The translations under genes were made by a program, and so were the position numbers. Of a stretch of DNA of 43,269 nt, positions 354 through 23,636 are shown piece after piece (positions within the stretch are counted from its first letter, which is position 1; each line of letters begins with the position of its first letter). This stretch comes from a virus. Under the pieces are notes generated by a model. The model was given only the letters and a program-made list of their open reading frames with translations, was not told where the DNA came from and made no database searches. The stretch is taken from UHGV virus genome UHGV-0027971. One strand, 5' to 3'.

Positions 354-489
354 CGTCTTCTCATGTAGGGTCAAGAAGCTTATGACTTAACCTATTAATT
401 ATGTGAATTACCTTGTGAGTAATACTCGTAGGATGGAATCTTCCAAAACTCTGACAATTCACTCTGAATGCATGGTAACAAAGAACAGT

Positions 490-1119
490 TTAAACCATGG
501 TCTGTTCAGCGTTAAATTTCTCAAGATAGACTTCCATTTCGCGAGTCCACCTAGGGGTAGGTACCGAGGTGATCATTAGCCAAGGAAACCACCATACAAG
601 CATGAAGAGTAACATAAGCGGTGCGATCATTTCGGCCGAAGAATGAGAAACTATATACATAATGAATAATATTAGTAGAACTGTGTTTACAATCTGACCT
701 ACCAGAAAAAGACGCCAGCGAAAACAATGCCATTTCCTGTTGAACACAATCCGTCCATCCCGTTCTTCGAGCCAGTTACGCCACGGCTTGAGATAACCAG
801 CCCGCAACCCATAACGATCACACATTATTACAGCCAAATCCTGCAGCCGATAATTATACAAGCCTGTGAGCCGATAAAGGCTGCGCTGACGAAGCTCACG
901 CTTTGCCAGACGGACCGCATTTTTATTCGAATATGGCTGTGTCAGCATTTGCTCTAGCCGGCGCTTCCTAAGATTGAGTAGTCCACGAAATACACTTCCA
1001 GATTCAGCATTAATTACTCTGTGACGAACTACACCGAGTGCAATATAGATACACAGCAATAGCCAGCCGGTCTTAGGGTATTGATTCATCCATTGTATAA
1101 TTACAGACAACTCAGGCAC
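490..1119 (-). CDS. hypothetical membrane protein (209 aa, hydrophobic segments near N-terminus and at residues ~140-185)
   Basis: Long ORF in the track; no family recognised by eye. Confidence 0.45.
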   Translation of the reverse strand: MPELSVIIQWMNQYPKTGWLLLCIYIALGVVRHRVINAESGSVFRGLLNLRKRRLEQMLTQPYSNKNAVRLAKRELRQRSLYRLTGLYNYRLQDLAVIMCDRYGLRAGYLKPWRNWLEERDGRIVFNRKWHCFRWRLFLVGQIVNTVLLILFIMYIVSHSSAEMIAPLMLLFMLVWWFPWLMITSVPTPRWTREMEVYLEKFNAEQTMV

Positions 1120-1170
1120 TTTTATTTTTCCTTTTTATGCAATCCAGATAAAACCAGTAAAGATTCAGTA

Positions 1171-1189
1171 AATTTTAGCGGCTAAAATT
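1171..1189. repeat. 19-bp palindrome AATTTTAGC-G-GCTAAAATT (copy 2)
   Basis: Same palindrome as 335..353 with similar flank (..CGTCTTCTC / ..GCTCTCCTAC); lies between the integrase stop and the 209-aa gene start. Confidence 0.5.
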
Positions 1190-1242
1190 GCTCTCCTACC
1201 GTAGAAAAAAGAAGCACAACCACTTAACTTACTGATTATTAA

Positions 1243-2433
1243 CTACTTACTAGTCCATTCATCAATCATATTCGCCCAATCTTGTAGCATCTCAGCCCTC
1301 TGCTCACGATATTCTGCCTTGTTATAAACAGCTCGTACCCCTTTTTGTTCATGGGCAAGGCTCTTCTCAATCCAGTCAGTATTGTACCCGGCCTCATGTA
1401 GCAAGGTGCTGGCTGTACGCCGTAAGTCATGGGGACCAAACTTAGGCAACAACTCCCCTTCTTTCTGAGCCAGGCGATACGTCAGTGTCAAAACCCGGTT
1501 TAAAGTAGCGCTACTCATTGGCGCATCGGAATCGTACCGCGAAGGAAGGATAAAATCAGAGCTACCGGCAAAGGTTTTGAGAGCAATCATAATATCCATT
1601 GCCTGTCTGGAAAGAAAAACCAAATGTGGATTACGTCGTTTCATCCTTTCCTTTGGTATCGTCCATAATGCCTCACTAAAATTGATCTCGTTCCAGGTTG
1701 CGTTAGTAAGCTCACTTTTACGTACCATCGTTAACAGCAAAAGTTTAACCGCTGCTCTGATTGATGGCGTCGTTCCTACCCGTTCCATGTACCGATACAT
1801 CAGACCAATTTCAACTGGCGTCAATGCCCTGTCTCGAGGCTCAAATTTCGCTATGCTTGCAGGCCGTACCAGATCAGCAGGATTCTCCACCTTCTGACCG
1901 CGCTCAATAGCCCAGCGATAGACTTGCAATACAATCTCTCTAGCGTGTACAGCTGTCGCTGGTGCCCCTCTCTCGACAATGTTATCGGTTAATGCGCGTA
2001 AGTCCTCATGTGTAATCTCACTAAGTTTCTGCTGGGCAAATTTTGACTTCAACTCCCTTTGATATACCGAACGCCGCATATCACGCGTCGATTCAGCCAT
2101 TTGATAACCGCGTAACCATTTCTCAGTCCACGCACCAAAAGTCTCCGCATCTTTAATACGCGCTTTATCTCTGGCTTTTTCCCTCGCAGGCGATATTCCA
2201 CTGGCAACCATTTTTTTGGCTTCATTGAGCCGTTCACGCGCTTCTGCAAGCGTGATCCCTCCAACACCATAGCGGCCAAAAGTAACAGTCTCCTGTCTTC
2301 CGTTTATTGAATAGTTATAACGAAATGAAATAGTTCCAGCCGGAGTGACCGCAACATACAGACCATCACGGTCATTAACTTTATAGAGTTTCTCCTTCGG
2401 CTTAAGGTGATGCAGCCTGGTGTCAGTCAACAT
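1243..2433 (-). CDS. int: tyrosine recombinase / integrase, P4-type (element 1)
   Basis: 396 aa; N-terminal MLTDTRLHHLKP..LYKVNDRDGLYV and C-terminal HDLRRTASTLLHEAGY..WIEKSLAH..GVRAVYNKAEY motifs typical of P4/CP4-57-like integrases; paralog of 41752..43002. Confidence 0.9.
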   Translation of the reverse strand: MLTDTRLHHLKPKEKLYKVNDRDGLYVAVTPAGTISFRYNYSINGRQETVTFGRYGVGGITLAEARERLNEAKKMVASGISPAREKARDKARIKDAETFGAWTEKWLRGYQMAESTRDMRRSVYQRELKSKFAQQKLSEITHEDLRALTDNIVERGAPATAVHAREIVLQVYRWAIERGQKVENPADLVRPASIAKFEPRDRALTPVEIGLMYRYMERVGTTPSIRAAVKLLLLTMVRKSELTNATWNEINFSEALWTIPKERMKRRNPHLVFLSRQAMDIMIALKTFAGSSDFILPSRYDSDAPMSSATLNRVLTLTYRLAQKEGELLPKFGPHDLRRTASTLLHEAGYNTDWIEKSLAHEQKGVRAVYNKAEYREQRAEMLQDWANMIDEWTSK

Positions 2434-2659
2434 GGTTTATTGTTTTCCTTTATCAAAAATACCATGTTGTAAAAAATTCAGAAAAGTTGTTTAACTATCT
2501 GTTTTTAATTGAGTTATAAAAAAACAAATACCATAACTCAACCGAAATTTATCACATGGTACTTTTTCAAACCTGAATTCGAAATCAGAGAGTACCATCA
2601 AAAATTCCATTGAAAAAACCGTGCTTCCCGTTGCTAACAGCTGCCAGAAAGTGCCAGAC

Positions 2660-2692
2660 ACAAAAACAAAAAAGCCCGCAGTTACGCGGGCT
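2660..2692 (-). terminator. rho-independent terminator (minus-strand sense) in the att arm of element 1
   Basis: Hairpin AGCCCGC-agttac-GCGGGCT with A-run 2660..2673 on plus = U-run on minus. Confidence 0.55.
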
Positions 2693-2738
2693 TAGAGGTA
2701 CTTTACTGCTTTTACGTGCAGGCTGTTGCCAGACGTTA

Positions 2739-2755
2739 AATCATTCCCACTCAAT
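2739..2755. repeat. att core direct repeat, left copy (AATCATTCCCACTCAAT)
   Basis: Identical 17-mer at 43193..43209, where it overlaps the last codons and stop of guaA; an integrase gene lies about 200-300 bp to the left of each copy. Confidence 0.75.
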
Positions 2756-2865
2756 TATTTACGGACACCATAACTAATTGAGTGATAACATTTTTCCAAA
2801 GATGAATTTTTCTCGTACCGTTTTATATACCGTCACCGGAAATCAGTACCATGAAAAATGCCATG

Positions 2866-3348
2866 CTATCTGGTCAGGGTGTCGTATTGTTTTTCGCAGA
2901 CTCTTCCGGCTTCGGCTGCCCGGTCAGCATACTCTGCCAGTTGTCTGTTTCTCTCGAGAGATTTGCTGAGCACGTCGGCAAGCAAAACTCCGGTGTCTGC
3001 GGCTGACGTCCCAGCGCCGACAATGGCGTTATACTGCCTGAGCTGCTCACGGATGGCAAAGAGTTGTTGCTGCAACCGGCCAGCGCGAGCGGCAGCATCA
3101 AGAGCATCATTGCGCGCCTGGTCGATCCTCTGCTGCGCTTCACGTTCATTGATCGATTTCTCCTGTTCGTAGTGCTGACGAACTATCTCATCTTCAGCTT
3201 TGCGGTCTTCCTTCGCCTGCGCATACCCGGCATCGTACTGACGACTGCCGTGTGCATTCCAGGCTACAACTCCTGATATGACCAGAACAGCAAGCATCGC
3301 CATGATAACCAACTGTTTCCAGTATGCTTTTGCGAATGCCCAGATCAT
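2866..3348 (-). CDS. i-spanin (Rz-like lysis protein)
   Basis: 160 aa, N-terminal hydrophobic anchor then a charged coiled-coil-like region; last gene of the lysis cassette; contains an embedded lipoprotein ORF. Confidence 0.75.
2874..3149 (-). CDS. o-spanin lipoprotein (Rz1-like), embedded in the +1 frame of the Rz-like gene
   Basis: Signal peptide with lipobox LALAGC, proline-rich mature part; entirely inside 2866..3348 in another frame. Confidence 0.7.
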   Translation of the reverse strand: MNVKRSRGSTRRAMMLLMLPLALAGCSNNSLPSVSSSGSITPLSALGRQPQTPEFCLPTCSANLSRETDNWQSMLTGQPKPEESAKNNTTP

Positions 3349-3974
3349 ACCGCCAGCACCTTACTGGCAGTTATGTATCGCGCGCGCCGGTCATCAATGC
3401 CGTTCCGGCCACCATTGATAAGCAGAGTTACACGTGCAATATCTCCGGTATACTTCATGCAGCCTTTGCTGGAGAAGAACCACGCCGCGCTACGAGCCGC
3501 GTATTCGTCCTGCGCCAGCAGTTCAGGACTCTCCAGCAGGTCAACCTTAAGACCGTTTCCACAGTCACGATAGTTATTCAAACCGGTAATCTGGATAAGT
3601 CCGCGCCCACGGTAGTTCCAGCCGTCACCAGGGGCATTGTTCCCCATGCGTTTGCTGTATACCAGATTGGCGATCGCTCGCTGCCTCTCCAGTGGCAACG
3701 ATGGTTCACCCTGCCGGCGCCCGAGGGAATTAGCCTGGCCCTGCGTCAGTCGTCCGGCACGGACGAAACCAGCCAGCCCAGCAACGCTGTAATTGAAGCT
3801 CTCAACGAGCTGGGTAAAGCCAGTGCTTTCATGCCCGGCCTGGGCAATAAACATAGCCTGATCCAGCGGCTTGATAATGCCAAACTCTTTCATGGCAGCC
3901 ACAATGTGCGGATGCCAGCGTGTTGCCAGCGCCAGGCTAACGCCGGCAGCTTTCTGAAACTCGTTAATGTCCAT
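3345..3974 (-). CDS. endolysin (lysozyme-like, probably glycoside hydrolase family 19 type)
   Basis: 209 aa; motifs [25 protein letters not shown] resemble GH19-type phage endolysins; sits between holin-like genes and Rz. Confidence 0.8.
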
Positions 3975-4269
3975 GTTGCGACCTCGATATCTTGAAGATT
4001 TGCACGACGTTGCCGCGCGTCTTCAGCACCGCGGCGAACATCACAGCATTGATAACGACCTCAGAAAGATCTGCGGTCATGGGGAAGTGGTACAGGTATG
4101 AGTACGCGGTGCGAAGCGGGATACTGGCCGCCGCCACGATGAGGAAATAGGCTATCCACCCACCCCAGCGGCGGTGGCGCGATCCGTTGCGCTGGAAGAA
4201 CATCACCCTCAGCGCTATCCCGCCGCAGATGAGGGCATTAGCGATAAGCAGCAGATCATGGCCTGTCAT
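3964..4269 (-). CDS. holin/antiholin-like small membrane protein
   Basis: 101 aa with about three hydrophobic helices, directly upstream of the endolysin. Confidence 0.5.
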
Positions 4270-4669
4270 CGTCTTTTCCTCCCGGGATTAAATCGCGCGG
4301 ATTGTCAGAGCGGTGATACAGCCATATCCCGACCCGCACCGCGACAATTGCCGCAACGAACGCGCCGGCGGAGTAGACAATACCCCGCTCGAACGAGTCC
4401 TGTGTGATGGTGGGGATCATGCTGGCAACGCCGATAAGGATTGATGCTGTGGGTTTGTAGAATAGAAGGCCGCAGAGAAAGCTGAGTAGAGCCAGGAGAA
4501 CACGGCGCTTGACAGGATACTCAACAGCTGAGGTAACAAAAATTACCGCCCCTGCCAGCGATCCCAGCGCCACTTCTGGCGGTACGCCGGCGATAACTGC
4601 CGCCAGCGCACCATAGCTAAGCCCCTGATTTATCGTGTCAGCGGTTAGCGATGCAGACATGATGACCAC
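4256..4669 (-). CDS. holin-like membrane protein
   Basis: 137 aa, multiple transmembrane segments and a charged C-terminal tail ([18 protein letters not shown]); first gene of the lysis cassette. Confidence 0.55.
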   Translation of the reverse strand: MVIMSASLTADTINQGLSYGALAAVIAGVPPEVALGSLAGAVIFVTSAVEYPVKRRVLLALLSFLCGLLFYKPTASILIGVASMIPTITQDSFERGIVYSAGAFVAAIVAVRVGIWLYHRSDNPRDLIPGGKDDDRP

Positions 4670-4762
4670 CGTTTACTATGCATGATGAACCTCCTTAGCT
4701 TGGTAGGCTCATCATACACAATAAACCAAATATGACTAAACGGTAATATTTAAGTTTATCCA

Positions 4763-4948
4763 CTATTCATCTTTGGTAACAGAGGCGCTATCAAACCAGT
4801 CTGTCGCTACCTCATCATCAACCGAATAAGTTATAACGTATTTCACTGGAGTATCTTTCATTACCGTATACCCGATTACCTCTCCGGCAATGCCTGGGAT
4901 ACCATTAACAGATACCGTAACCATTTGACCAATATTTATAATGCTCAT
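4763..4948 (-). CDS. hypothetical small protein downstream of the tailspike
   Basis: 61-aa ORF abutting the tailspike stop (ATGA overlap). Confidence 0.4.
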   Translation of the reverse strand: MSIINIGQMVTVSVNGIPGIAGEVIGYTVMKDTPVKYVITYSVDDEVATDWFDSASVTKDE

Positions 4949-7245
4949 GACGTCACCGTAAAATTAAATAATAATGAATCGGTAGAAGAAGCCAGCCATA
5001 AAGACTGAGTTTTATTTTTCGGAGCTTCAATCAAATCCATTGATGCTTTTGCAGAGCAATAAAACCCGTAATCTCCTGTTGCAGCTATTGAAATCTCAAC
5101 CAGATGATTAGCATTTATTGCAGCTGTGATAGAGGGAGTTGACGTAGTTTCAGCATCCCAGTTATCCCATTCGTGAGATAGTATCCTTGCGCCGGTAGCC
5201 CAGTTGTCATTGACAGTACCATTTGAGATCAGCACCACAGCCCTGATGCGAGAATATTTTTGCGTCGTCCTTGTTCTGAGGAACGCTGTAACATTAACAA
5301 TTGCAGCGTTAAATCCACCGACAACACCGAAAGTCCAGAGAGTTTTACTACTGTTGACCCCGGCACCGGATGCGACAGGAGGAAAATCTGTGGTTATTTT
5401 CCCAATACTCCCTGTATTAATGATTCTTGGGGCATATTTAAATTCGGCAGGGACCACGGTATTAGCCCCAAGAACAAATGCCATGGATGATGCCCTTAAT
5501 TTGTTGCCTGTTACGTTAGGATGGGTATCATCATTCATCCACCCTTTTGATACGGCGTTTTCATAAGTACCTAGGGTCTGCCTGTCATCAAAATAGTAAT
5601 AGCCATTATTCAAAGCAAAATTTCTCCTGGCTATCCTGTAACTCTCTACGGCACTAGCATATTTGGGGTTAGTCGTCTTACTTGTTTCCCCTGGTTCAAC
5701 TATTAGCGCAACCGACGATGATGGTTTTATCATATTGGTATATGTTATCAAATCCGCCTTAAACTGCTCAACAGTTCTCCCTTGCCCCATATCATTAGTT
5801 CCCGCATTAATAACAACTAAAGCAGGGTTTAATGCAGCTTTCCATTTCGAAATAAAAACAGAGTCCTGCGATACAAACTCATCAAGTCGCCTGCCGCCAC
5901 GTGCAATTGTTGCTGTTCTTATACCTCTTGGGTTTGGTGTATATATAAAATCAAGTGCAAAAATAACTACATTACCGGTAATTTCTGAAAGTGTGATGCT
6001 GGAGGCATTTGTCGCATCTCTGAATACAGAAATAACGCCAAGATCCAAATCGGCGTTACTGTTAACGCTAGTCACAGTGCCGCCTGCCGTTATATTAAAG
6101 CTACCACCACCTGATTGTTTTAAATAATACAAATTACACTTATCCCATGGCAATTTGGGATCAGCGCCAGCTTGCTCAGTACCACTTGCTGAAGGCCATT
6201 GAATACCTCTACCAGCAGGAGCATATTTTGCTGGGGTAGCATTCATCGGTAAATCTCGTAAACTGGTGAATGTTCCTAAAGCATAAAATGCCTGATCACC
6301 TTCTATCTGAAAGGCCGCTTGATCAAAAGCATAAAATCCAGGTCCACCATAATCAAATGATGAATGCAGAAGTATTTTCAGGTATCTAACATAATTGGTG
6401 TTACCTGCCCCCTCATTAAGTGAATCAATGCCAAACTGAATCAGGCCTCCGGTTTGTAAAAGATAAGCAAGTGGATTATTTTTAACATATGAATTTACAT
6501 CCATTCGATCTAGTGTTGCTCCTACCGTTGTTTCATGAAACCCTGACAAGTTAGCGCCTGTAGGTTTTGCAAGTTGGATCAACACATCAGAAGCGCTACC
6601 AGGAATGGCAGGGACAGGATTTGGTTCACCATAATCGTTGAAAGTGAAAACTGTATTTTTCCTTACGTCCACAGAAGGAAGAAAAGATATTTCATCTTCA
6701 GGTACTCTCACCGTCCTTTTAAACAAATTCTCAGAATGCTGATTATTACTTGAATCTCCGGCATCTACATAATTCTTTGTTGCAGCATCCTGTGCCTGTG
6801 ACGGGTCACGCAGATTACGAATGCGGTTGTTGAGTGCGTCGTAATAGCTCGCGATGAACGACGGCTTACGCAGCGCCAGGCGGAGAAAGCTGAAGCACTG
6901 CTGGATAAGCATGGTCAGCTTGTCGAATGCATCCTCATGCACCTCTGCGAAAAATTTCCCCTGGTTACGCAGATCAGTCTCCTGGGTAACAGGCAAGTCA
7001 CGTGAGATAGAGATTTGCCATCCGTTGGCCAGAGGTGACATCAACACAACGCTCCCACCTGAATAGCTTCCCGCCCCGGTAACTGAGTAATCGGTATCTA
7101 AAGTCAGAACTGTAATATTTTCGTTAAGGTCAGCGACCTGGACAGTGAGATCTGACTTCTTGAAGATGCGAAACGTGTACGGGAAAGATGTGGTAACGCC
7201 GTTCCCTGTGTAGTCGTTATGGTCGACTTCGGTTGAGACCGTCAT
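4945..7245 (-). CDS. tailspike/tail fibre protein with SGNH (GDSL-like) hydrolase domain
   Basis: 766 aa; N-terminus MTVSTEVDHNDYTGNGVTTSFPYTFRIFKKSDLTV typical of podovirus tail-fibre head-binding domains; C-terminal part has SGNH-like blocks (VVINAGTNDMG, NDDTHPN). Confidence 0.8.
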   Translation of the reverse strand: MTVSTEVDHNDYTGNGVTTSFPYTFRIFKKSDLTVQVADLNENITVLTLDTDYSVTGAGSYSGGSVVLMSPLANGWQISISRDLPVTQETDLRNQGKFFAEVHEDAFDKLTMLIQQCFSFLRLALRKPSFIASYYDALNNRIRNLRDPSQAQDAATKNYVDAGDSSNNQHSENLFKRTVRVPEDEISFLPSVDVRKNTVFTFNDYGEPNPVPAIPGSASDVLIQLAKPTGANLSGFHETTVGATLDRMDVNSYVKNNPLAYLLQTGGLIQFGIDSLNEGAGNTNYVRYLKILLHSSFDYGGPGFYAFDQAAFQIEGDQAFYALGTFTSLRDLPMNATPAKYAPAGRGIQWPSASGTEQAGADPKLPWDKCNLYYLKQSGGGSFNITAGGTVTSVNSNADLDLGVISVFRDATNASSITLSEITGNVVIFALDFIYTPNPRGIRTATIARGGRRLDEFVSQDSVFISKWKAALNPALVVINAGTNDMGQGRTVEQFKADLITYTNMIKPSSSVALIVEPGETSKTTNPKYASAVESYRIARRNFALNNGYYYFDDRQTLGTYENAVSKGWMNDDTHPNVTGNKLRASSMAFVLGANTVVPAEFKYAPRIINTGSIGKITTDFPPVASGAGVNSSKTLWTFGVVGGFNAAIVNVTAFLRTRTTQKYSRIRAVVLISNGTVNDNWATGARILSHEWDNWDAETTSTPSITAAINANHLVEISIAATGDYGFYCSAKASMDLIEAPKNKTQSLWLASSTDSLLFNFTVTS

Positions 7246-7330
7246 GTTAAATCTCCAGATAGTCGCAGCACCCGTTGCGCCGCATATCCGGTTATTTTAT
7301 TACCTGAAAAACCACATATGGATAGATAGA

Positions 7331-7346
7331 CTGTGAATTCGAACAG
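7331..7346 (+). promoter_or_regulatory. candidate second SOS-box-like site (CTGTGAATTCGAACAG)
   Basis: CTGT-N8-ACAG spacing, but the spacer is not the usual AT-rich sequence. Confidence 0.3.
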
Positions 7347-7401
7347 ATATTACCTTTCAGGTAATTTTCAAAACGTGCTGGATAGCAAATAAATTATTTG
7401 A

Positions 7402-7421
7402 TACTGTATAAATATACAGTT
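7402..7421 (+). promoter_or_regulatory. LexA (SOS) box TACTGTATAAATATACAGTT overlapping a promoter (-35 TTGATA at 7398..7403)
   Basis: Near-consensus CTGT-N8-ACAG with AT-rich spacer, 20 bp upstream of the 7441 start. Confidence 0.75.
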
Positions 7422-7440
7422 ATTGCATGGAGAAGATAAG

Positions 7441-7698
7441 ATGCAGCAGTATCACTATCCACTGGAAGAGGGATTTACCGAAAGGATTCACACGCCGGGA
7501 GGCGTCAGGTCACTGGTGGAGGGATCGCACTTGATGAAATTACTCCGGGATCTCGATAAGGATGGATTTAATGTCGATGGCCCACTTGCCGAACTGACTG
7601 CACTGATTAACTACGTCACCAGCTCACAGATGTCTATGCGGGATCTGCAAACACATCTCGACTATTGTGCCGAACAATTACGAAAACAAACCCGGTAA
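7441..7698 (+). CDS. SOS-regulated small protein, stand-alone homolog of the shared antirepressor C-terminal module (Tum-like role inferred)
   Basis: 85 aa from ATG 7441 (RBS GGAGAAG; track start 7423 is a forced TTG). Aligns with the C-termini of the proteins at 9345, 11074 and 41064 (IH.P.GV..L.E.S.LM.LL...DG..V.G..AELT...Y......RD.QTH..Y). Confidence 0.6.
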   Translation: MQQYHYPLEEGFTERIHTPGGVRSLVEGSHLMKLLRDLDKDGFNVDGPLAELTALINYVTSSQMSMRDLQTHLDYCAEQLRKQTR

Positions 7699-7705
7699 AT
7701 TTAAA

Positions 7706-7721
7706 GGCCGCAAGAGCGGCC
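7706..7721. terminator. hairpin terminator between convergent genes
   Basis: GGCCGC-aaga-GCGGCC followed by a T-rich tract; between the 7441..7698 (+) and 7721..8449 (-) 3' ends. Confidence 0.55.
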
Positions 7722-8449
7722 TATCGTTTCGCTTTGTGCTCATCCCAGCACGTTTTGCACCATGCCATTAAACCATCCGCATTTTGATTATTAGGGTAAA
7801 AGCTGGTTCGTTTTCTGCGGACATTACAAATTGGGCACCACTTCATATGGCGTGTATTCTTTGGGCCATCGAGACACCTTGCACACCACTTAGTCAATCC
7901 ATCTGGATTTTTTGACGATTTCCTGAATTTTTCATATGGAAGGTTTATTCTGCATCGCAAGCACTGCTTGCTACCACTTGAAACTCTGTTAGCTGATTCT
8001 TCTTTTGGCGGCGATACAGAAGGTATTCTTGCTGGCTCTGATACTGCCTGAGGTGCTTTTTTAGATGACTGAGACGATGTGTCATCACCAGGGAATCTTC
8101 CATGATATGCCGGACGCGTTGACACTCCAGGTGGAAGCTCTGCTGTAAATGGCTTTGGCTGAATCAGTTGCCTCTCTTTTGCTAACTCCTGCTGTTTATA
8201 ATATGTCTGGATTACCGCACTATCATAAGCAGGAGGTGCGGAAATATTAGGCGCATTACCTCCAGTTTTTTGAAACTGAGTAGAGGTGTGTTCTATCACC
8301 TGTGTACGATTAATCGTTATCTCCCCATCTTCGGTCTTTATCGTTTTGTTATGATTTACGACCGTACGATCAGAGATCTTAGTCTTGTTCTGGTTGATAA
8401 CGTAAATAATCACCGCAACCACACCAACAACTATCCAGAAAACTTCCAT
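7721..8449 (-). CDS. hypothetical membrane-anchored protein with two C-terminal zinc-ribbon-like motifs
   Basis: 242 aa; N-terminal hydrophobic helix, low-complexity S/P-rich linker, then CLRC..(x20)..WCARC and CPIC..(x20)..WCKTC. Confidence 0.5.
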   Translation of the reverse strand: MEVFWIVVGVVAVIIYVINQNKTKISDRTVVNHNKTIKTEDGEITINRTQVIEHTSTQFQKTGGNAPNISAPPAYDSAVIQTYYKQQELAKERQLIQPKPFTAELPPGVSTRPAYHGRFPGDDTSSQSSKKAPQAVSEPARIPSVSPPKEESANRVSSGSKQCLRCRINLPYEKFRKSSKNPDGLTKWCARCLDGPKNTRHMKWCPICNVRRKRTSFYPNNQNADGLMAWCKTCWDEHKAKR

Positions 8450-8604
8450 TGCTTTTCCTCACAATAACATTACCTTAAAGGTAATATCTTGCTTTCAGGT
8501 GATCAAGCATTAAACTCCATCAACCAAATACGGTTGATTTTGATATTTATTCTCGCTTATCATTACCTTTGCGGTAAATTTACATCGCACTCCTCTTGTG
8601 CCAT

Positions 8605-8690
8605 AGTAATCAGGCACTGGCAAAATCCAGTGCCGGGATTGGCGTCCCGGATTACTAGTAGGCGCATACCACGCCAGACGTGGTTTTTTT
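8605..8690 (+). ncRNA. candidate structured small RNA or leader element ending in a rho-independent terminator
   Basis: Outer stem TAGTAATC/GATTACTA enclosing hairpins GGCACTGG-caaaat-CCAGTGCC and CCGGGA-ttggcg-TCCCGG, then terminator CCACG-ccaga-CGTGG + T7 (8669..8690). Function unknown. Confidence 0.3.
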
Positions 8691-8845
8691 ATGCGTATAG
8701 CACAGTCATATCCGAATTATGGTGGGCTGGGCAGGGGCACCGAAAGGTGCGCCGGTACCTACTAGGCCGGTACGCCAACCTTGTCCAGTTCACCACCAGC
8801 AATTGGCGTTGCGGTGGTAGGTAACTTACTAGTAGAGGTATCGCT

Positions 8846-9352
8846 ATGCCAGGCCAAAAAATCTCAAACGACGATCTGTATTGGTTAATTTCTAATTCTC
8901 CACTCCTTCTTATGCTAAGGCAAGAAAGTGCACCACTGGTCAGTGAATTGATTAGCTGTAGAAATAGAATGTGGGATGAAGGGGCAGATTTAGATACCAA
9001 TTTGTTTGATCATCTTATGCAACTAGCAGTCGATAACAAGGCAAAACTACGCTCTGAATACAACGCTTATCCAGAAATAGCAAAATACCTTAACGCTGAA
9101 ATACTTGGTGGACCAGGTCAACCAGACCTAAAAACAAAAGATGGTTACCCTGTTGAGGTGAAGGTAGATACTTTTTCTCCTTCAGCATTAAAACAATTAT
9201 TAAGGTATATGGATGCTTCTGGCGCAGATTTTGGTTTTGCTTGTGCAAAAACTCTTTCTGTAAAACTCCCTGAAAACATAAAGTTCATCCAGTTAGATTA
9301 TAAAGATAATTGCTATTTCGTCGTGAAAGATGGAGGCAATGAAAATGCGTAA
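8846..9352 (+). CDS. hypothetical protein (168 aa), possible PD-(D/E)xK-like motif
   Basis: ORF with RBS GAGG; sequence KDGYPVEVKVD resembles a D..E.K nuclease core but this is a weak by-eye guess; AT-rich. Confidence 0.5.
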   Translation: MPGQKISNDDLYWLISNSPLLLMLRQESAPLVSELISCRNRMWDEGADLDTNLFDHLMQLAVDNKAKLRSEYNAYPEIAKYLNAEILGGPGQPDLKTKDGYPVEVKVDTFSPSALKQLLRYMDASGADFGFACAKTLSVKLPENIKFIQLDYKDNCYFVVKDGGNENA

Positions 9353-10064
9353 TATAGCTATTGATAAGTTGCCGATAACAACTCATTGCAACATCCCTGT
9401 AATGACTACAGAAATGCTTGCTGATTTGTATGACACAGAACCCAAACTGATTCGTCAAAACTATCAACGAAATGCAGATCGATTCATTGAGGGAAAACAT
9501 TGTTTCAAGCTGATAGGCGAAGAATTACGAGCATTTAAGAACGAGTCCTCTCAAAGAGGTTTGCTTAATATTGCACCAAAAGTAAGTCATCTTTTCTTAT
9601 GGACCGCTCGCGGTGCAGCACGACATGCGAAAATTCTTGAGACTGAAAAAGCGTGGGAGGTCTTCGAAAAACTGGAAGATTGCTACTTCGACAGAAAACC
9701 CGCAAATGTCAGTGGAGATGTTCGTCTCTCAGGTGGAGCTGATTTATCAAAGGCCACTCAGGTAATTGAAAAATTCATGCCCGCCATTATGGAGGCGATC
9801 AAGCTGGAAGACAAAAAAGAATACAGCGCCCCACTGAAGCCCGGCTACCGCAGCCTGATTCACTCGCCGTCGGGTGTTCTCGGCCTGACGGAGCACTCAC
9901 TGCTGATGAATCTGCTGAATCAGTTGCAGGAAGACGGGCACGACGTATCGGGCGCGGCGGCGGAACTGACCACCATGTTCTGCTACATCGTCGGTGTGAG
10001 TAAATGCCTGCGTGATATCCAGACGCACGCGGAGTACATCAACGACAAGGCAGGGTTCTTCTGA
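9345..10064 (+). CDS. antirepressor-like protein (ORF6N-type N-terminal domain + shared C-terminal module)
   Basis: Start taken at ATG 9345, 8 nt after GGAGG (track start 9330); C-terminal ~95 aa near-identical to those of 11074..12012 and 41064..41720. Confidence 0.7.
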   Translation: MRNIAIDKLPITTHCNIPVMTTEMLADLYDTEPKLIRQNYQRNADRFIEGKHCFKLIGEELRAFKNESSQRGLLNIAPKVSHLFLWTARGAARHAKILETEKAWEVFEKLEDCYFDRKPANVSGDVRLSGGADLSKATQVIEKFMPAIMEAIKLEDKKEYSAPLKPGYRSLIHSPSGVLGLTEHSLLMNLLNQLQEDGHDVSGAAAELTTMFCYIVGVSKCLRDIQTHAEYINDKAGFF

Positions 10065-10184
10065 CAGAACGGCGGCACAGGGATGTGCAAAACGGAACTA
10101 TCGTGACATGTCACAGGCCGCTTTCGCGGCCTTGTTTTTAACGAATGCCACCGCCGCCTGGGCGGGAATCCGCAGACACAAAAA

Positions 10185-10201
10185 AGCCCGCGGCGCGGGC
10201 T
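10185..10201 (-). terminator. rho-independent terminator downstream of the 10209..10844 gene
   Basis: Hairpin AGCCCGC-ggc-GCGGGCT with A-run 10177..10185 on plus (U-run on minus); sequence resembles the terminator at 2660..2692. Confidence 0.5.
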
Positions 10202-10208
10202 TAAAGAA

Positions 10209-10844
10209 CTATTTTATTGGCAGCTTATGCTTTGAAATTATGGCCAATCTGTTTTGGAAGTTTTCCGCATCACCCCACAACCAGGTTTCACCTTTCTCAA
10301 GTTCTTCCTCGTTATTCATCTCTATAAGTTCGCATGTCATCATGTCGTAACCATAGAGATGGAGGCCAAGTTCCAGTGCGTCATACATGCGAGCCTGCCA
10401 GAACGACATGCCTTCATGAGTCTGGTTGCGATCAGACACGATGATATCGTACCGTTCCAAGAGGTAGTTCATGAAGATGATGCCAGCGAAATCATGAAGC
10501 ACAGCACGATGCTTAGGCTTCTGGGTTCTCCATACCAATATCTGCGTGACAGGACGGCAGTTAAGATAGCTGTCAGGCTGGATAATGACACGATTGTAAT
10601 ACACTACCTCTTCGGTGAGGTCATTTATCAATGACAGTTCAAAGTGCGCCTGTGGAATCTCGCCTTTCTTACGATCGTCTACACGGACAACGCGGTATCC
10701 AGGAGCCAGAGAAACGCCTTTGACATCAGATGTGACATCGTTGCCGTTCACTAACTCTGAATACAGAGCGCGGTTGTCTGGAGTTTCGTTCAGATGAGCG
10801 AAAACCTCAGTTACCTTTGCCGGATTCAGCAGTTGTTGTGGCAT
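10209..10844 (-). CDS. hypothetical protein (211 aa), accessory gene
   Basis: Clean ORF with its own terminator and two upstream TTACC-N5-GGTAA-type sites (10886..10900, 10986..11000); no family recognised. Confidence 0.5.
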   Translation of the reverse strand: MPQQLLNPAKVTEVFAHLNETPDNRALYSELVNGNDVTSDVKGVSLAPGYRVVRVDDRKKGEIPQAHFELSLINDLTEEVVYYNRVIIQPDSYLNCRPVTQILVWRTQKPKHRAVLHDFAGIIFMNYLLERYDIIVSDRNQTHEGMSFWQARMYDALELGLHLYGYDMMTCELIEMNNEEELEKGETWLWGDAENFQNRLAIISKHKLPIK

Positions 10845-11073
10845 ACATCACCTCATAATATATAGATGCTTCTTTAAGCGGGATTTACCATTAGGGTAAA
10901 TGAACTATCCGAATGTTAAACGCCTTCGTACTCGTCAAATTTTCTCATGTGGGCTCCTCCTGTATCGGTGCCTAATCGCTATGGATCACCCGTGAGGTAA
11001 TAGTACGCTATTCACCCCCAGTCTGCAATCTGTACAGAATTATTTAAAGGCACATCCCTGTGCCGCCGTTCTG

Positions 11074-12012
11074 TCAGAAGAATCCTGCCTTGTCGTTGAT
11101 GTACTCCGCGTGGGTCTGGATATCACGCAGGCATTTGCTCACACCAACGATGTAGCAGAACATGGTGGTCAGCTCCGCCGCCGCGCCCGATACATCGTGC
11201 CCGTCTTCCTGCAACTGGTTCAGCAAATTCATCAGCAGTGAGTTCTCCGTCAGGCCGAGAACACCAGACGGCGAGTGAATCAGGCTGCGGTAGCCGGGCT
11301 TCAGCGGATAACCATAACATTTTGTCTGTGTTTTAATTGCCTCACGAAGCGCATCTAACATCTTGACTGCCACTTCATCATTCTCTGATGCAGATCCAGC
11401 AGGGAGATACTCCCCTTCAAGCGGAACCCGAGCAACAAGAGACAACGCTTCGGCGAATTGATCTTCATCAATTTCTTTGTACGAACAGCCAAAATGAGAT
11501 TTCAGTGACGACCACATGGTGATCATCGCCTTAGCCTGTTTTTCTTTTGGCAGAGACTGACCGCGACTCATGACGAGTTGTTTAATGGCTTCCTGCTGTT
11601 CAGTGGTGATTTTACCCGGCAACGCCTTTTTAGCTTTGCGTGGGTTAACTACATGGCCTTTAGTCCAGTAATCGTAGAGCACATCGTCACACTCTTCCTG
11701 ATACTGGATTACCTTGTCGCGGATTTCAGGGCGTACTTTGTTTGGACTGATGCTGTTCAACCAAGCTGCCAATTTTCGTAAAGCCATACAAATCATGGCT
11801 TGCACCCCACCGGCAGAAGGTATGGTGATTTCCACCATACCCTTCGAGAAGCGTTGAGAAATCTTCTTATGTTGAGATTTCCAGTCTAGCCCCATTCCCT
11901 CAACGATAGGTTTCATTGGGGTATACGGTTCACCGTTGTGATTGACAACATAAAGCTCTGCGCCGTGGAATGGCACGTTGATAGTAGATACCGCTGTTGC
12001 TATACTCGTCAT
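11074..12012 (-). CDS. ant: antirepressor (AntA-type N-terminal domain + shared C-terminal module)
   Basis: 312 aa; N-terminal region resembles AntA/P22 Ant-type domains; directly downstream of the arc-like gene as in P22 immI. Confidence 0.8.
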   Translation of the reverse strand: MTSIATAVSTINVPFHGAELYVVNHNGEPYTPMKPIVEGMGLDWKSQHKKISQRFSKGMVEITIPSAGGVQAMICMALRKLAAWLNSISPNKVRPEIRDKVIQYQEECDDVLYDYWTKGHVVNPRKAKKALPGKITTEQQEAIKQLVMSRGQSLPKEKQAKAMITMWSSLKSHFGCSYKEIDEDQFAEALSLVARVPLEGEYLPAGSASENDEVAVKMLDALREAIKTQTKCYGYPLKPGYRSLIHSPSGVLGLTENSLLMNLLNQLQEDGHDVSGAAAELTTMFCYIVGVSKCLRDIQTHAEYINDKAGFF

Positions 12013-12087
12013 GTCGTTAATTCCTATACGTAGTTTTACGATACTGAAGCCCTGACGGTCTGGCCACCGTTGGGCTTCGCTGTTTTA
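12013..12087 (+). ncRNA. candidate sar-like antisense RNA opposite the ant ribosome-binding region
   Basis: Plus-strand promoter inside the ant 5' end (-35 TTGATA 11978..11983, 17-bp spacer, -10 TATACT 12001..12006) and plus-strand terminator in the arc-ant gap (GAAGCCC..ACGGT-ctggcc-ACCGT..GGGCTTC + GCTGTTTTA, 12046..12087); predicted ~75 nt. Confidence 0.45.
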
Positions 12088-12252
12088 TGCCACGCTATTC
12101 TTCTCACCAGTGAGTCCATACACTTTCCTCAGCTGATAGATAATCTCTGTATTGAACTTTCGGCATTCTTTTTCGCCATTTCTTTCAATAGCTAACTTCA
12201 CATCGTCCGGAAAACGAACTCGTCGTTGACACATCTCTTTTGCTTTTTGCAT
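12085..12252 (-). CDS. arc: Arc-like ribbon-helix-helix repressor
   Basis: 55 aa from ATG 12252 with strong RBS AAGGAG (track start 12288 is a forced TTG); size and beta-strand region (RRVRFPDDVKLAIERNGE) fit P22 Arc. Confidence 0.7.
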   Translation of the reverse strand: MQKAKEMCQRRVRFPDDVKLAIERNGEKECRKFNTEIIYQLRKVYGLTGEKNSVA

Positions 12253-12266
12253 TTCATATCTCCTTA

Positions 12267-12281
12267 GCCCCACGGTGGGGC
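12267..12281. promoter_or_regulatory. Mnt-operator-like palindrome GCCCCACGGTGGGGC upstream of the arc-like gene
   Basis: Perfect 15-bp palindrome with CCACGGTGG core as I recall for the P22 mnt operator; sits just upstream of the arc RBS. Confidence 0.6.
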
Positions 12282-12372
12282 AAAACAATTGTCACACCGT
12301 GCGTCATTGATGTCAAGCACACGGTGAGGCATACTTCAATCATTGCAAGTAACTCAATATTTGGTGAAGAAC

Positions 12373-12804
12373 ATGAGCAGAGAAGATCCACAACTAAGGA
12401 TCAGACTTCCCGTTGAAGTAAAAGAAAAAATAGAAATTTCTGCAAAAGCCAATAAGCGATCAATGAACGCTGAAATAGTACAACGTCTTGACACCAGCTT
12501 TCTGAAAGATATTCATGAAGATGACGTAATTTCTGCTTATGAAGCAAAAATTATTGCAAACAATGCACGGCATGAAATATCAAATATTATTTTCAAAAGA
12601 ACCTTTAATGAAATTAATAAGAAAATAACACTTGGACATACAAGTTTTTATATAAACCTTAATGACCTTGAACTGGAATCACTTGCAGATAATGATTACC
12701 AGATCATCTTTGAAAAAACATTTAATAAGCTCAATGAACTAGGTTACATCATCTGTGAAAACTCATGGGATGCAGATGGTTTTGGAATTGAAATACCTGA
12801 ATAG
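12373..12804 (+). CDS. mnt: Mnt-like ribbon-helix-helix repressor with extended C-terminal region
   Basis: N-terminus MSREDPQLRIRLPVEVKEKIEISAKANKRSMNAEIVQRL matches my recollection of P22 Mnt (MARDDPHFNFRMPMEVREKLKFRAEANGRSMNSELLQIV); divergent from arc-ant; start taken at ATG 12373. Confidence 0.75.
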   Translation: MSREDPQLRIRLPVEVKEKIEISAKANKRSMNAEIVQRLDTSFLKDIHEDDVISAYEAKIIANNARHEISNIIFKRTFNEINKKITLGHTSFYINLNDLELESLADNDYQIIFEKTFNKLNELGYIICENSWDADGFGIEIPE

Positions 12805-12846
12805 GAAGAACAAAAGGCGTGTACATATTACACGTCTTTAATACAA

Positions 12847-13458
12847 TTGAAAAACGCCACATTACTGATGTATGTTACAACAAGGAGCGATATTTTGAAA
12901 ACCATATCTATATTAAAGGTTGCATTAGGCGTCGCTATTATTTTGACTCTCTCAATATTGTTTTATTTTTACCACAAAAAAAATGCTATTGCTCTTGATG
13001 GTCACGCGGCAAACTCATTTTTCTCAGAGTACATAGTGCCGCTATCAGGAAGCGGTATAACAAATAAATATACTGACTATGACATCAAATATGGAATTGA
13101 TGATGGGGAGACTATTGTATTACATGTAATCATTAAAAACCTAATGACAGTAAATAAAAATACAGACTTCAACGATAAAAATACAATACATCACAACAAC
13201 AGCAAAACATTAATTTCTTATAGTAGCAACATCTATACGGATAAATACCTAAAATACATCTCAGAAGATACAATAAAAGCAACCAGCGAAAAGTTAAAAA
13301 ACATATATTGTGCATCCGGCAGTTTTCACAAATTATCGCCGCAGGAGCGTTTATTCTACGAAGCAAGAAAACAACGTAAGTCAATAATATTACATTATTA
13401 TGCTGATTCAGGGGAGTCACTCATATTTAATATTGGGGTTTCCCCTGAATCATGCTAA
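12847..13458 (+). CDS. hypothetical membrane-anchored protein (203 aa), AT-rich accessory gene
   Basis: N-terminal hydrophobic helix (ILKVALGVAIILTLSILFYFY), N/K/Y-rich body; position next to mnt corresponds to sieA in P22-like maps (positional analogy only). Confidence 0.45.
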   Translation: MKNATLLMYVTTRSDILKTISILKVALGVAIILTLSILFYFYHKKNAIALDGHAANSFFSEYIVPLSGSGITNKYTDYDIKYGIDDGETIVLHVIIKNLMTVNKNTDFNDKNTIHHNNSKTLISYSSNIYTDKYLKYISEDTIKATSEKLKNIYCASGSFHKLSPQERLFYEARKQRKSIILHYYADSGESLIFNIGVSPESC

Positions 13459-13469
13459 AGGCGTTTAAC

Positions 13470-16400
13470 TCACCGCATCACCGGATCCACCTGGTTTATT
13501 AGTGGCGCAATCCAGAACAGGTTATTGCCTGGTATCAGAGTTCGGACATTATGCGCAATACGATCACCGGCATCACCATTCAACACTCCTGCGGTCACAT
13601 CAATGATGCTATCCGCAAGACCAAATGACGGTCCGAATAGAGATCCTACGAATCCACGACTGGCATACCTAGACTGTGTGCCAGTGCCAAATAAAGCCCC
13701 CAGCCCAACAGCACCACCAGTAGCCTTTTCAGCCATGTTGTTATATTCCATCAATGGCCCAAGAATACCGGATCTATCTATACCCTCAAGCACCAGCTTC
13801 TCTGGTGACCAGTCAACATTTTTCCCTTTCGATGCTTCTTTTAGCGCATAGACCAGTGAGCCAAGAGCAATCTGAAATGCAGTGCCATAATAAAATTGCG
13901 CAGTTCCCTCCTGTAACCCACCAAGTAGCGCACGGTTGTATGAAGCCGTTGTGAATGATTTAAACTGAAATATCGTTCGCCCCATTGGAGTACTCGCCCA
14001 TAAAGGTGTGTCACCAATACCGGGGGTGATGATAGTGTTATTAACGTCTTTCAGAACCGCTGACTGGAATACTCCGGCAACGTACTGATCGTCCCATTTA
14101 TCAAAGTTACCAATGTGCCATCCATCAATTACCTCACCATGTTTCTCGAACTCACTGCGAATACGCGCAGCCATATTGTCGTTGATACCGAGTTTTGCCA
14201 TGCGACGTGCAGAAAACGCACCGGACAAAATACCGTCTGACGTGAGCATTCCGTTCATGGATTTGTTTATGTCATTAAATCGATCCATGAGTGTCAGCTT
14301 GCCGAAGGCATCAGTAATTCGCTCCATTCCTGCTTCGACTGCTGTTGTCCTGGAAGAACTGTCAACAAGATCACCAATTGCACGAGAACGTGAATGTAGT
14401 ACAGCTTCCAATCCAATCCCCATCTTCAACATATCTTCTTTGCTGGCCTTAAATGCCGGTGATTGGGATATCTGAGAAGCATAGCCTTTCATGGTGTTAC
14501 GGAAACCATTAACCATAACCCCTCTGGCCAGATCTGGAATAGCTGATACTGTCATTCCACCGAGTTTGGTCGTGAAGTTCACATCCCGCAGAAAAGCGCC
14601 AGCACGAACAAAAAACGAAGACGGATCATCAGGCATCCCATATGTACCAACAAGACGATCGCGTAATGCTGTTATGTCTCTGAGATCATTTGCTCTTGAT
14701 TTTGAAAGTCTGGACTGTTCTTTCCGTAATTCCTTTTCGTACTTTCGCATTAATGAATCGAGTTTACCCTGAGGAACAACTTCACCATTGCTCTCATAAC
14801 GTGCTTTCAGATTTGCCACACTTTCGTCATATTTCGCCTTTATTTTTTCAGGCACTTCCCGTAACAGACTGTCATATTCGTCCTCAATTAATTGCAGACG
14901 CTCAGTCATAGTTCGTTTGCCAAATGTTCTCGTCAACTCAATTTCTGCTGCCGCTTCACGGATATGACGTTGCAGCACGTAATTCACATCACTTTCAAGA
15001 TAATCCCTGATAAGACTATCAGGAACATTTAATGTTCTTTCTTTCGTACTACCTGCGGCTTTTACAGAAAATACGCTGACAAAATCCTGTGGAACCTTAG
15101 CACCAGTAATTTTATTAATTACGATATCCGCTGCAATTTCAGCATCCTCAGGATCCAGTGTTTTATTTCCTCTCGACCACCAGTCAACCAAAATACGTCG
15201 AAATTTATCGCGTTCACTGATTATTTTTCCAACTTTATATATGCGTGGGAAATAGCTTGCCTGGCCTAATGCTTTCAGTTCTTCATCTGGCGGCAATAAA
15301 CCAAGCTTTTGCATTTCAACTTTCACCCGATTTAATACAGTTCGCATCGCCTGCGCCGTTTCCTGAACAACAGGATTAGCATGCACATCACCGCTTCGCA
15401 TAGCATTCCCAACCTGCTGACGAAATGAATCAAAACTCATGTCACCACCATCAGCTTTATACTTTGCGTATGCCTGTTTATTTCCGACAACAACAGCAGC
15501 TTCTTCACGCTGCCATCCACGTGTACGGGTTTCTACAGCTACCGGTGTTTCAATCCCCCTTTCATTTCCTTTAAGGGTGAAATTATTTTCGGCTAACTCC
15601 AGCGTTGTTTTTCGCACCGTCTTGGACGGAGACTCCATTAACCTTGTCAAAGGAGTAAGATAGCTCCCTGCTTTCCATGCAGCCTTTCCAACCCACCCAC
15701 CGGAAACAGGGGTTAAATCATCCAGAGTCGCTGTATCAATTTTCATAGCACCAACACTACCACCATCGGAAAGCGAAGCGGCAGCCCTGTCAGTCACTGA
15801 TGTAATGCTCATATTATCAAGAGCATCAGCAACCTCACGTGTGGCTGCAGCCCGGACGGATGGCGAAAGCGCAACACCAGCACTGGCAAACACGCCGCTC
15901 ATCATCGCACCCGCTGCAACGTGAGCGGCACTTTCACCCCATGAGCGTGTTATTTGCTGATTATTCAGTACAACCTCGCTTAATGCTGTACCGGCAGCAC
16001 CAATCGCAATCTGTGAGCCAATACGCGCCAGTGCCCCTCCTTGAGCACCGGGAATAAACATTGACGCAACAGTAACCGGATCCATTCCCGCAGCAATACT
16101 GGCAAGGGTTCCAACTACGCCAGCATCAGACAATAAACGTCTGTCTTCATTTTCATCATCTATCTGCTGCTTAATCCACGCCGTTTCCTCTGGCGATCGG
16201 GAATCTGCAAATTTCGCCCCCCAGTATTCATAACCGTGCAACTCATTTTTATCAGCATATGGGTTATAACCCTCGACCGGTTCAAACTGTCTGGCTGGGC
16301 GGAAAAAACCAGACAGAATATTGTTCTGTCGCATTGCAGCCCCCCATACGGAAGGCTCAGGTGGCAATGGCTCAGGATTAGCCCCTTCCGGAAGGGCAAC

Positions 16401-16484
16401 ATCAAACCCAGTTTGTTCCGGCAAAACATTACCTGACGGGATCAGTCCGTTATTAAGATCTTCAGCTTGTGCATAAACTGGCAT
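13470..16484 (-). CDS. internal virion/ejection protein (T7 gp16-position, 1004 aa)
   Basis: Very large ORF ending the virion operon after the gp14/gp15-like genes. Confidence 0.7.
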   Translation of the reverse strand: MPVYAQAEDLNNGLIPSGNVLPEQTGFDVALPEGANPEPLPPEPSVWGAAMRQNNILSGFFRPARQFEPVEGYNPYADKNELHGYEYWGAKFADSRSPEETAWIKQQIDDENEDRRLLSDAGVVGTLASIAAGMDPVTVASMFIPGAQGGALARIGSQIAIGAAGTALSEVVLNNQQITRSWGESAAHVAAGAMMSGVFASAGVALSPSVRAAATREVADALDNMSITSVTDRAAASLSDGGSVGAMKIDTATLDDLTPVSGGWVGKAAWKAGSYLTPLTRLMESPSKTVRKTTLELAENNFTLKGNERGIETPVAVETRTRGWQREEAAVVVGNKQAYAKYKADGGDMSFDSFRQQVGNAMRSGDVHANPVVQETAQAMRTVLNRVKVEMQKLGLLPPDEELKALGQASYFPRIYKVGKIISERDKFRRILVDWWSRGNKTLDPEDAEIAADIVINKITGAKVPQDFVSVFSVKAAGSTKERTLNVPDSLIRDYLESDVNYVLQRHIREAAAEIELTRTFGKRTMTERLQLIEDEYDSLLREVPEKIKAKYDESVANLKARYESNGEVVPQGKLDSLMRKYEKELRKEQSRLSKSRANDLRDITALRDRLVGTYGMPDDPSSFFVRAGAFLRDVNFTTKLGGMTVSAIPDLARGVMVNGFRNTMKGYASQISQSPAFKASKEDMLKMGIGLEAVLHSRSRAIGDLVDSSSRTTAVEAGMERITDAFGKLTLMDRFNDINKSMNGMLTSDGILSGAFSARRMAKLGINDNMAARIRSEFEKHGEVIDGWHIGNFDKWDDQYVAGVFQSAVLKDVNNTIITPGIGDTPLWASTPMGRTIFQFKSFTTASYNRALLGGLQEGTAQFYYGTAFQIALGSLVYALKEASKGKNVDWSPEKLVLEGIDRSGILGPLMEYNNMAEKATGGAVGLGALFGTGTQSRYASRGFVGSLFGPSFGLADSIIDVTAGVLNGDAGDRIAHNVRTLIPGNNLFWIAPLINQVDPVMR

Positions 16485-23310: not shown

Positions 23311-23636
23311 TCACCTCCGTTACCGTACAGAGTTTCAGCCGCTGATTTTTCTACATCCCCGGAAACAGGAGCGATCGCCATATCAGTGATCTGCAGATCG
23401 GCGCTGCGATTAACGCCATCGTCAGTTTCTCTGGCAGACAGGCCTCGAATAACAGCCTTTGCAGTTATCATCACTTCTGTTCCGACGCCCTGAGGTTGCG
23501 TCTTCAGCTTATTCAATGTGTCGTTATTAAGAGTGATGCACAGCCCCCACGGGTATTCATCGCGAGTTCTGGTTTCTCCGCTCTCATCCTGGTAGCTGTC
23601 AGTGCCGGTTTTGAGGTTTACGAGTTCCATATACAC
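23307..23636 (-). CDS. hypothetical virion-module protein
   Basis: 109-aa ORF with ATGA overlap to the downstream gene. Confidence 0.45.
   Translation of the reverse strand: MYMELVNLKTGTDSYQDESGETRTRDEYPWGLCITLNNDTLNKLKTQPQGVGTEVMITAKAVIRGLSARETDDGVNRSADLQITDMAIAPVSGDVEKSAAETLYGNGGE

Follow-up and report, generated by a model that had tools for sequence, protein, structure and literature searches.

In UHGV virus genome UHGV-0027971, a viral DNA of 43,269 nucleotides (hereafter the window, meaning this whole stretch), we found a small antirepressor gene, ant, with a LexA operator in front of it. By analogy with phage SPC32H, it is very likely, with a probability of about 0.9, that this locus is the SOS sensor of the prophage lysis-lysogeny switch, i.e. 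that the SPC32H mechanism is at work in Escherichia coli. As long as lysogeny lasts, ant would be kept silent by host LexA bound at 7402..7421, since all plausible ant promoters overlap or adjoin this box, while the prophage repressor, Rep, would bind TTACC-N5-GGTAA operators across the prophage and hold the lytic genes off. Since Rep is without an autocleavage domain, it cannot sense RecA directly. Following DNA damage, RecA-stimulated self-cleavage of LexA would derepress ant, and the 85-aa Ant would then bind Rep and dismantle its DNA-binding tetramer, releasing the lytic genes. In this scheme the binding of LexA to the box, the binding of Ant to Rep and the requirement of ant for induction are inferred from the SPC32H literature. 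The features on which the scheme draws are listed here.

7349..7365, unstranded: ATTACC-N5-GGTAAT palindrome between the divergent tailspike and ant genes, a probable Rep operator
7402..7421, unstranded: LexA (SOS) box TACTGTATAAATATACAGTT, with the core CTGT-N8-ACAG CTGTATAAATATACAG at 7404..7419
7430..7433, plus strand: Shine-Dalgarno sequence GGAG, 7 nt before the ATG
7441..7698, plus strand: ant, encoding the 85-aa small antirepressor, orthologue of SPC32H Ant (SPC32H_020)
7705..7722, unstranded: GC-rich hairpin between the convergent ant and 7721..8449, 7 nt past the ant stop
36220..36804, plus strand: rep, encoding the 194-aa prophage repressor, the presumed target of Ant

The preliminary description of this DNA had placed a LexA box at 7404..7419 before an 85-aa open reading frame (ORF), and both the coordinates and the assignment hold. 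In the 20-mer TACTGTATAAATATACAGTT, 18 of 20 positions agree with the E. coli LexA consensus TACTGTATATATATACAGTA. The gap between box and ATG is 21 nt, and some 19 nt separate the end of the 20-mer from the ATG at 7441. With a position weight matrix trained on 23 known SOS boxes of E. coli, which gives approximate scores, the 20-mer reaches 26.8 bits, as compared to 12.0-26.6 for the training sites. The best site per shuffled window (100 shuffles) had a mean score of 12.2 bits, with 19.9 as the largest, and the runner-up in the window itself, at 29026..29045, scores 9.8 bits. The site at 7402..7421 is the sole credible LexA site in the 43-kb window. It is also kept across a wide range of relatives: in an alignment of the tailspike-ant intergenic regions from 10 phage sequences, with hosts in Escherichia, Salmonella, Enterobacter and Klebsiella, the box is in register in all 10, at 19-27 bits, while the flanking sequence diverges. 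A single difference separates SPC32H from SPC32N in this aligned region, a C-to-A change in the right half-site (ACAG to AAAG) that lowers the box score from 25.0 to 18.5 bits. An abstract from 2013 reportedly describes SPC32N as carrying a point mutation in the LexA site overlapping the ant promoter, with Ant constitutive and the phage lytic. The two sequences agree with such a mutation.

There are four copies of the core motif CTGT-N8-ACAG in the window, where 0.42 would be expected. The nearest of the other three had been pointed out in the preliminary description.

7331..7346, unstranded: second CTGT-N8-ACAG, CTGTGAATTCGAACAG, a chance match and no part of the switch

The motif is indeed present there, and its distance of 57 nt upstream was given correctly, but as a LexA site it is not credible. 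Positions 7329..7348 score 9.0 bits with 11 of 20 consensus positions, which is less than the weakest of the training sites (12.0) and less than the mean of the shuffled maxima (12.2). The phages phiV10 and TL-2011b, ~ 95% identical at the locus, read CACATAAATACGAACAG and CCCATAAATACGAACAG at this site and lack the left half; nor is there a counterpart in SPC32H. The remaining two matches, at 24486 and 29028, were also rejected as GC-rich or low-scoring, with − 3.0 bits (24484..24503) and 9.8 bits respectively.

Comparing the annotations of the reading frame, the program-made ORF list starts the ant frame at TTG 7423, whereas the ATG at 7441 agrees with the start of the annotated and crystallised orthologue. 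The GGAG falls in a block, TTGCATGGAGAAGA, that is common to seven of the 10 aligned phages and altered in Tyrion, BUCT554 and the Klebsiella phage. The LexA box at the ant promoter that characterizes an SPC32H-type Ant is recognized here by score and register, the promoter hexamers not being identified by the consensus scan. The claim that the box overlaps a promoter is thus unconfirmed by that scan, and what can be offered is a set of weak hexamer pairs picked by eye: TAGCAA (7383..7388)-N18-TATAAA (7407..7412), for which the SPC32H equivalent is TAGTCA-N18-TATGTT; TGGATA (7380..7385)-N16-TACTGT (7402..7407); and TTGATA (7398..7403)-N17-TATTGC (7421..7426). All three overlap or abut the box, so that occupancy by LexA would occlude RNA polymerase in each case. 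At the other end of the gene, the terminator scan calls the 7705..7722 hairpin on the minus strand. It is probably a bidirectional terminator, the plus-strand function being suggested by its position. Since the hairpin divides ant from the convergent gene, the ant unit would be monocistronic.

The protein itself leaves little doubt about its relationship. Window Ant is 88% identical to SPC32H Ant over 83 aa, and, in keeping with the SPC32H type, is a protein of ~ 86 aa homologous along its whole length to that antirepressor. Its sole match among solved structures is 5D50 chain E, 'Anti-repressor protein' (E = 6e-47), and the SPC32H GenBank record annotates the matching gene as 'ant: anti-repressor protein' (SPC32H_020). 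Against PHROG it matches phrog_450 over residues 2-85 (E = 8e-48). In comparisons with the Salmonella and Enterobacter orthologues, the ratio of nonsynonymous to synonymous substitution rates (dN/dS) is 0.06-0.07 with synonymous sites near saturation, and ant is under strong purifying selection. The Pfam scan of Ant (E ≤ 0.01) returned a sub-threshold DUF724 match and nothing else, at 17 bits against a cutoff of 38, which we treated as spurious; in particular, it found no P22_AR_N, AntA, ORF6N or Bro-N domain. The remote homology search against Tum and antirepressor families that had been proposed led to SPC32H Ant (5D50_E), while homology to Tum was not detected, Pfam giving the sub-threshold DUF724 and the PDB search 5D50_E. 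A word-indexed protein search with Ant returned close relatives of 85-86 aa and a few gene calls of up to 142 aa, and was uninformative on fusions. The suggestion in the preliminary description that the ORF is a minimal, SOS-controlled antirepressor, possibly the actual inducer, fits well with this orthology to the LexA-controlled SPC32H Ant.

Conservation and orthology also contradict an alternative account, in which the box is a chance palindrome or a regulator of the tailspike gene, and the small ORF is a functionless, decaying fragment of a large antirepressor. Database labels could be read in that way: PHROG 450 is labelled 'unknown function', the ORF is called 'hypothetical protein' by RefSeq in E. 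coli genomes, and it has no Pfam family match. However, the box score is far above anything in shuffled sequence, and the position of the box is fixed relative to the ant ATG across host genera, while it lies 159 bp from the tailspike start. A decaying fragment would also be at odds with a dN/dS of 0.06 and with the close identity to a protein that has a solved structure and a published function. We regard this account as highly improbable.

The presumed target of Ant is recognizable as well. The preliminary description had proposed the product of 36220..36804 as the repressor, and it proves to be the orthologue of SPC32H Rep, matching 5D50_A, 'Repressor', over residues 1-190 (E = 3.5e-42), including the C-terminal domain solved as 5D4Z, with 43% identity to SPC32H Rep. 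The rep region is 97% identical to the repressor region of ZX5/phiV10. The Pfam domains of Rep are helix-turn-helix (HTH) only, and no S24 peptidase (autocleavage) domain was found in the Pfam scan; an autocleavable repressor of the lambda CI type was rejected on this ground. The predicted protein therefore resembles the SPC32H-type Rep in having two HTH domains and a putative C-terminal domain for tetramerization and Ant binding, together with the lack of an autocleavage domain. It can also be seen that Ant is much better conserved than Rep relative to SPC32H (88% vs 43%), despite the unchanged operator motif.

This motif, TTACC-N5-GGTAA, is probably the Rep operator. There are 11 exact copies in the window against 0.78 expected, and 19 with no more than one mismatch, spanning 408..43059; in SPC32H there are 10 against 0 expected. 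The operator-like sites are mostly intergenic and clustered around rep, with examples at 7350, 8470, 8563, 10885, 28499 and 31618, and further sites at 33795, 33857, 36150, 36862 and 36924. Those nearest rep are as follows.

36102..36116: operator-like palindrome upstream of rep (1 mismatch)
36150..36164: operator-like palindrome upstream of rep (exact)
36862..36938: pair of exact operator-like palindromes where the early operon begins, downstream of rep

The palindrome at 7349..7365 keeps both half-sites in 10 of the 10 aligned phages, with one G for A in phiV10 and TL-2011b, and the epsilon15 GenBank record labels the equivalent site as a repressor binding site.

Several of these observations weigh against ant as the SOS sensor. 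Between 7200 and 7800 the consensus promoter scan gave no sigma-70 match. That a Rep of 43% identity has kept the Ant interface is an assumption. The 7349..7365 palindrome, 39 nt upstream of the box, could act as a second lock on ant, and if it also represses ant, loss of LexA alone would be insufficient. Finally, the prophage carries three further antirepressors, which might make ant dispensable. These large genes and their surroundings are listed below.

8614..8690: isrK match in Rfam, 68 bits, upstream of the 8846..9352 ORF and the ORF6N antirepressor
8715..8800: C4 antisense RNA match in Rfam, 77 bits, in tandem with isrK
9330..10064, plus strand: 244-aa antirepressor, ORF6N with an Ant-like C-terminus (Pfam ORF6N, E = 1e-18; C-terminus 5D50_E, E = 1e-13)
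11074..12012, minus strand: 312-aa antirepressor, P22_AR_N with an Ant-like C-terminus (Pfam P22_AR_N, E = 2.5e-45; 5D50_E, E = 7e-14)
12014..12081: sar RNA match in Rfam, 45 bits, just above the gathering score, directly upstream of the P22_AR_N antirepressor
12085..12252, minus strand: 55-aa Arc-like ORF, judged by eye, no Pfam match
12343..12804, plus strand: divergent Arc-domain ORF (Pfam Arc, E = 1e-14)
40933..41022: sRNA-Xcc1 match in Rfam, 63 bits, directly upstream of 41034..41720
41034..41720, plus strand: ~ 228-aa antirepressor, AntA (Pfam, E = 4.5e-26) with an Ant-like C-terminus (tblastn)

A tblastn search of Ant against the window places copies of the Ant module at the C-termini of 9330..10064 (+), 11074..12012 (−) and 41034..41720 (+), each 43% identical to Ant (E = 4e-14 to 6e-15). 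The alignment with three larger proteins, described earlier as extending along the whole length of the ORF, covers 74-76 of the 85 residues, and the last 6-10 residues differ. In the ORF6N and P22_AR_N proteins the C-termini alone match a solved structure, 5D50_E (E about 1e-13), and all three large proteins match PHROG 450 (E about 1e-35). The DNA of the three cassettes, 9774..10065, 11050..11307 (inverted) and 41430..41721, is 96-97% identical over 235-292 bp; such near-identical cassettes behind unrelated N-terminal domains suggest recent events inside the prophage, either module exchange or gene conversion. In ZX5 and TL-2011b this module is found at the end of the Bro-N antirepressors, that of ZX5 being one residue away from the module of the ORF6N protein and identical to those of the other two large proteins, and a diverged form ends Tyrion gp20 and a Klebsiella phage protein (77% and 54% identical). 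In the case of phiV10, the 'anti-immunity protein' p23 (Bro-N) and the small p22 ORF, at 7266..7945 of that genome, match the cassette in two frames, and this copy of the large antirepressor appears to be frameshifted.

Given these modules, one could argue that ant is SOS-controlled but not decisive, and that induction proceeds mainly via one or more of the large antirepressors, with the small Ant being redundant or only the trigger. The presence of three further Ant-like modules in the prophage speaks for this, as do the control elements that the large genes have of their own and the finding that overexpression of the large Bro-N protein of ZX5, with the same C-terminal module, cut lysogens ~ 1000-fold (PMC9782041). 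Nevertheless, the matrix scan of the window found no LexA box at any of the three large genes (the best other site being the one at 9.8 bits), so that these cannot sense SOS directly and the small ant is the sole SOS-wired member. Moreover, the Salmonella relatives SPC32H and epsilon15 carry the small Ant alone, and the small gene is the one kept throughout the lineage. Taken together, we consider a leading role for the large antirepressors unlikely, and favor the small Ant as the one through which damage is sensed.

The distribution of the two forms also bears on the origin of the small gene. The fusions are absent from SPC32H, epsilon15, 65FD and BUCT554. Since the small gene is conserved in every lineage member while the fusions are missing in some, the stand-alone ant is a conserved core gene and not a recent truncation. 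The earlier description of the ORF as a stand-alone copy of the module was correct in that the module is common to the three large proteins, but not in making ant the derived copy, as it is the fusions that occupy variable accessory slots.

A further, tentative idea is that the cassette is a Rep-specific effector that has been coupled to four inputs: LexA/SOS for the stand-alone ant; isrK/C4 antisense RNA for the ORF6N protein; a P22 immI-like Mnt/Arc/sar arrangement for the P22_AR_N protein; and the Rep-controlled early operon with sRNA-Xcc1 for the AntA protein. The operator-like palindromes at 8470 and 8563 also adjoin the ORF6N antirepressor module, and 41034..41720 is the last gene of the early operon, which starts at the operators 36862 and 36924. 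The N-terminal partners of the cassette are Pfam/PHROG antirepressor families of their own, and such domains are common in other phage groups. Among 50,697 phage records, the module, alone or in fusions, has matches in 35, and these show the same breakdown by organism as the 35 in which the ant locus is found, which is consistent with a Rep-specific effector. Support also comes from the Bro-N fusion of ZX5, which has this C-terminal module and works as an antirepressor on overexpression. Under the four-input arrangement, recombination would keep the cassette uniform among the three fusions. We consider this possible, though short of probable. If true, it would mean that large phage antirepressors owe their repressor specificity to their variable C-terminal halves, and that several signals can be integrated in one prophage by way of a single effector domain. 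This combination of one cassette with four kinds of control is the sole part of the analysis that could add new biology, and it is modestly novel.

As for the setting, the prophage in the window is of the epsilon15/phiV10-like (Uetakevirus) kind, with E. coli as host. A motif search of the window found exact copies of the attachment (att) core ATTGAGTGGGAATGATT at 2739..2755 and 43193..43209, and this is the core given for phiV10, epsilon15 and ZX5 (PMC9782041). The two att cores bound the prophage within the window, which is therefore complete, at ~ 40.5 kb. In the tailspike-ant region, identity is 95-97% with E. coli phages such as phiV10, TL-2011b, vB_EcoP_ZX5 and PAS61, and 74-80% with Salmonella phages epsilon15, SPN1S and SPC32H and Enterobacter phages Tyrion and BUCT554, all belonging to Uetakevirus. 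The divergent arrangement of ant and the tailspike gene recurs in SPC32H, phiV10, TL-2011b, epsilon15, 65FD, Tyrion, BUCT554 and ZX5. Among 5426 complete E. coli genomes, the ant locus was found in 531 (~ 10%), and the carriers of phiV10-type prophages with the locus include O157, Shiga toxin-producing E. coli (STEC) and avian pathogenic E. coli (APEC) strains. Two further genes belong to this description.

4945..7245, minus strand: tailspike/tail-fibre gene, 766 aa
41752..43002: integrase gene

Residues 440-585 of the tailspike form a GDSL/SGNH esterase-like domain; in contrast to the SPC32H tailspike, this suggests a receptor-modifying activity of the O-antigen deacetylase type. There is no oac gene between the lysis cassette and the tailspike gene of the window, whereas phiV10 has one there. 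A tRNA-Arg gene (anticodon TCT) lies at 28836..28912, and SPC32H encodes one too. The gene convergent with ant, 7721..8449 (−), encodes 242 aa with an N-terminal hydrophobic segment and C-terminal cysteine-rich repeats, the latter with weak matches to endonuclease VII, HNH and Lar-like families (PHROG 6762, unknown function); SPC32H has no counterpart of it.

The ant/LexA switch as such is already known, having been characterized genetically, biochemically and structurally in the same phage genus. The value of the present finding is mainly one of annotation, as the small Ant is missed by RefSeq, by PHROG and by the 2022 paper on the near-identical E. coli phage ZX5. That study, in which overexpression of the repressor blocked lytic growth, tested only the neighbouring large antirepressor and mentions neither LexA nor SPC32H (PMC9782041). 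A small ant acting as the SOS sensor would tell how phiV10-type prophages are induced, e.g. by SOS-inducing antibiotics, and would be the gene whose deletion would stabilize lysogens or reporter phages.

Similar logic is found in several known systems, with different degrees of relationship. The large paralogues recall the immunity regions of other phages: the P22_AR_N antirepressor, with its sar match and Arc-domain gene, resembles P22 immI (mnt-arc-sar-ant), and the ORF6N antirepressor behind its isrK and C4 matches resembles P1 immI (c4-icd-ant) and Gifsy-1 isrK-anrP. This likeness is restricted to the large paralogues, the C-termini of which are SPC32H-Ant-like and not P22_AR_C or KilAC/ANT domains. 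For the small Ant, the resemblance to 186 Tum and to the Gifsy antirepressors noted in the preliminary description is borne out as functional logic. Tum of 186, a P2-like myovirus, is likewise a LexA-repressed small antirepressor directed against a non-self-cleaving repressor (PMC7380047), with no sequence relationship to Ant detected in the Pfam and PDB searches. GfoA and GfhA of Gifsy-1 and Gifsy-3 are also LexA-controlled and act by protein-protein contact, and are able to act in trans on other prophages (Lemire et al. 2011, PMC3121763); these are lambdoid siphoviruses, and homology of their antirepressors to Ant was not detected.

The closest system is Ant-Rep of SPC32H (Kim & Ryu 2013, J Virol 87:11775; Kim et al. 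2016, PNAS 113:E2480; PDB 5D50, 5D4Z). As summarized in later papers, Ant of this type is LexA-dependent and inactivates the repressor by protein-protein contact (PMC7380047); SPC32H Rep is tetrameric when bound to DNA, and this tetramer is broken up by an Ant tetramer, which binds two dimers of Rep (PMC9638917, citing Kim et al. 2016); and the C-terminal domain of Rep mediates both tetramerization and Ant binding (PMC9986798). The window differs from SPC32H in its E. coli host, in a strongly diverged Rep and in the three large cassette-bearing antirepressors, which SPC32H lacks. What the two share is orthologous Ant and Rep proteins, an ant gene divergent from the tailspike gene, the position of the LexA box, the TTACC-N5-GGTAA motif and the genus Uetakevirus.

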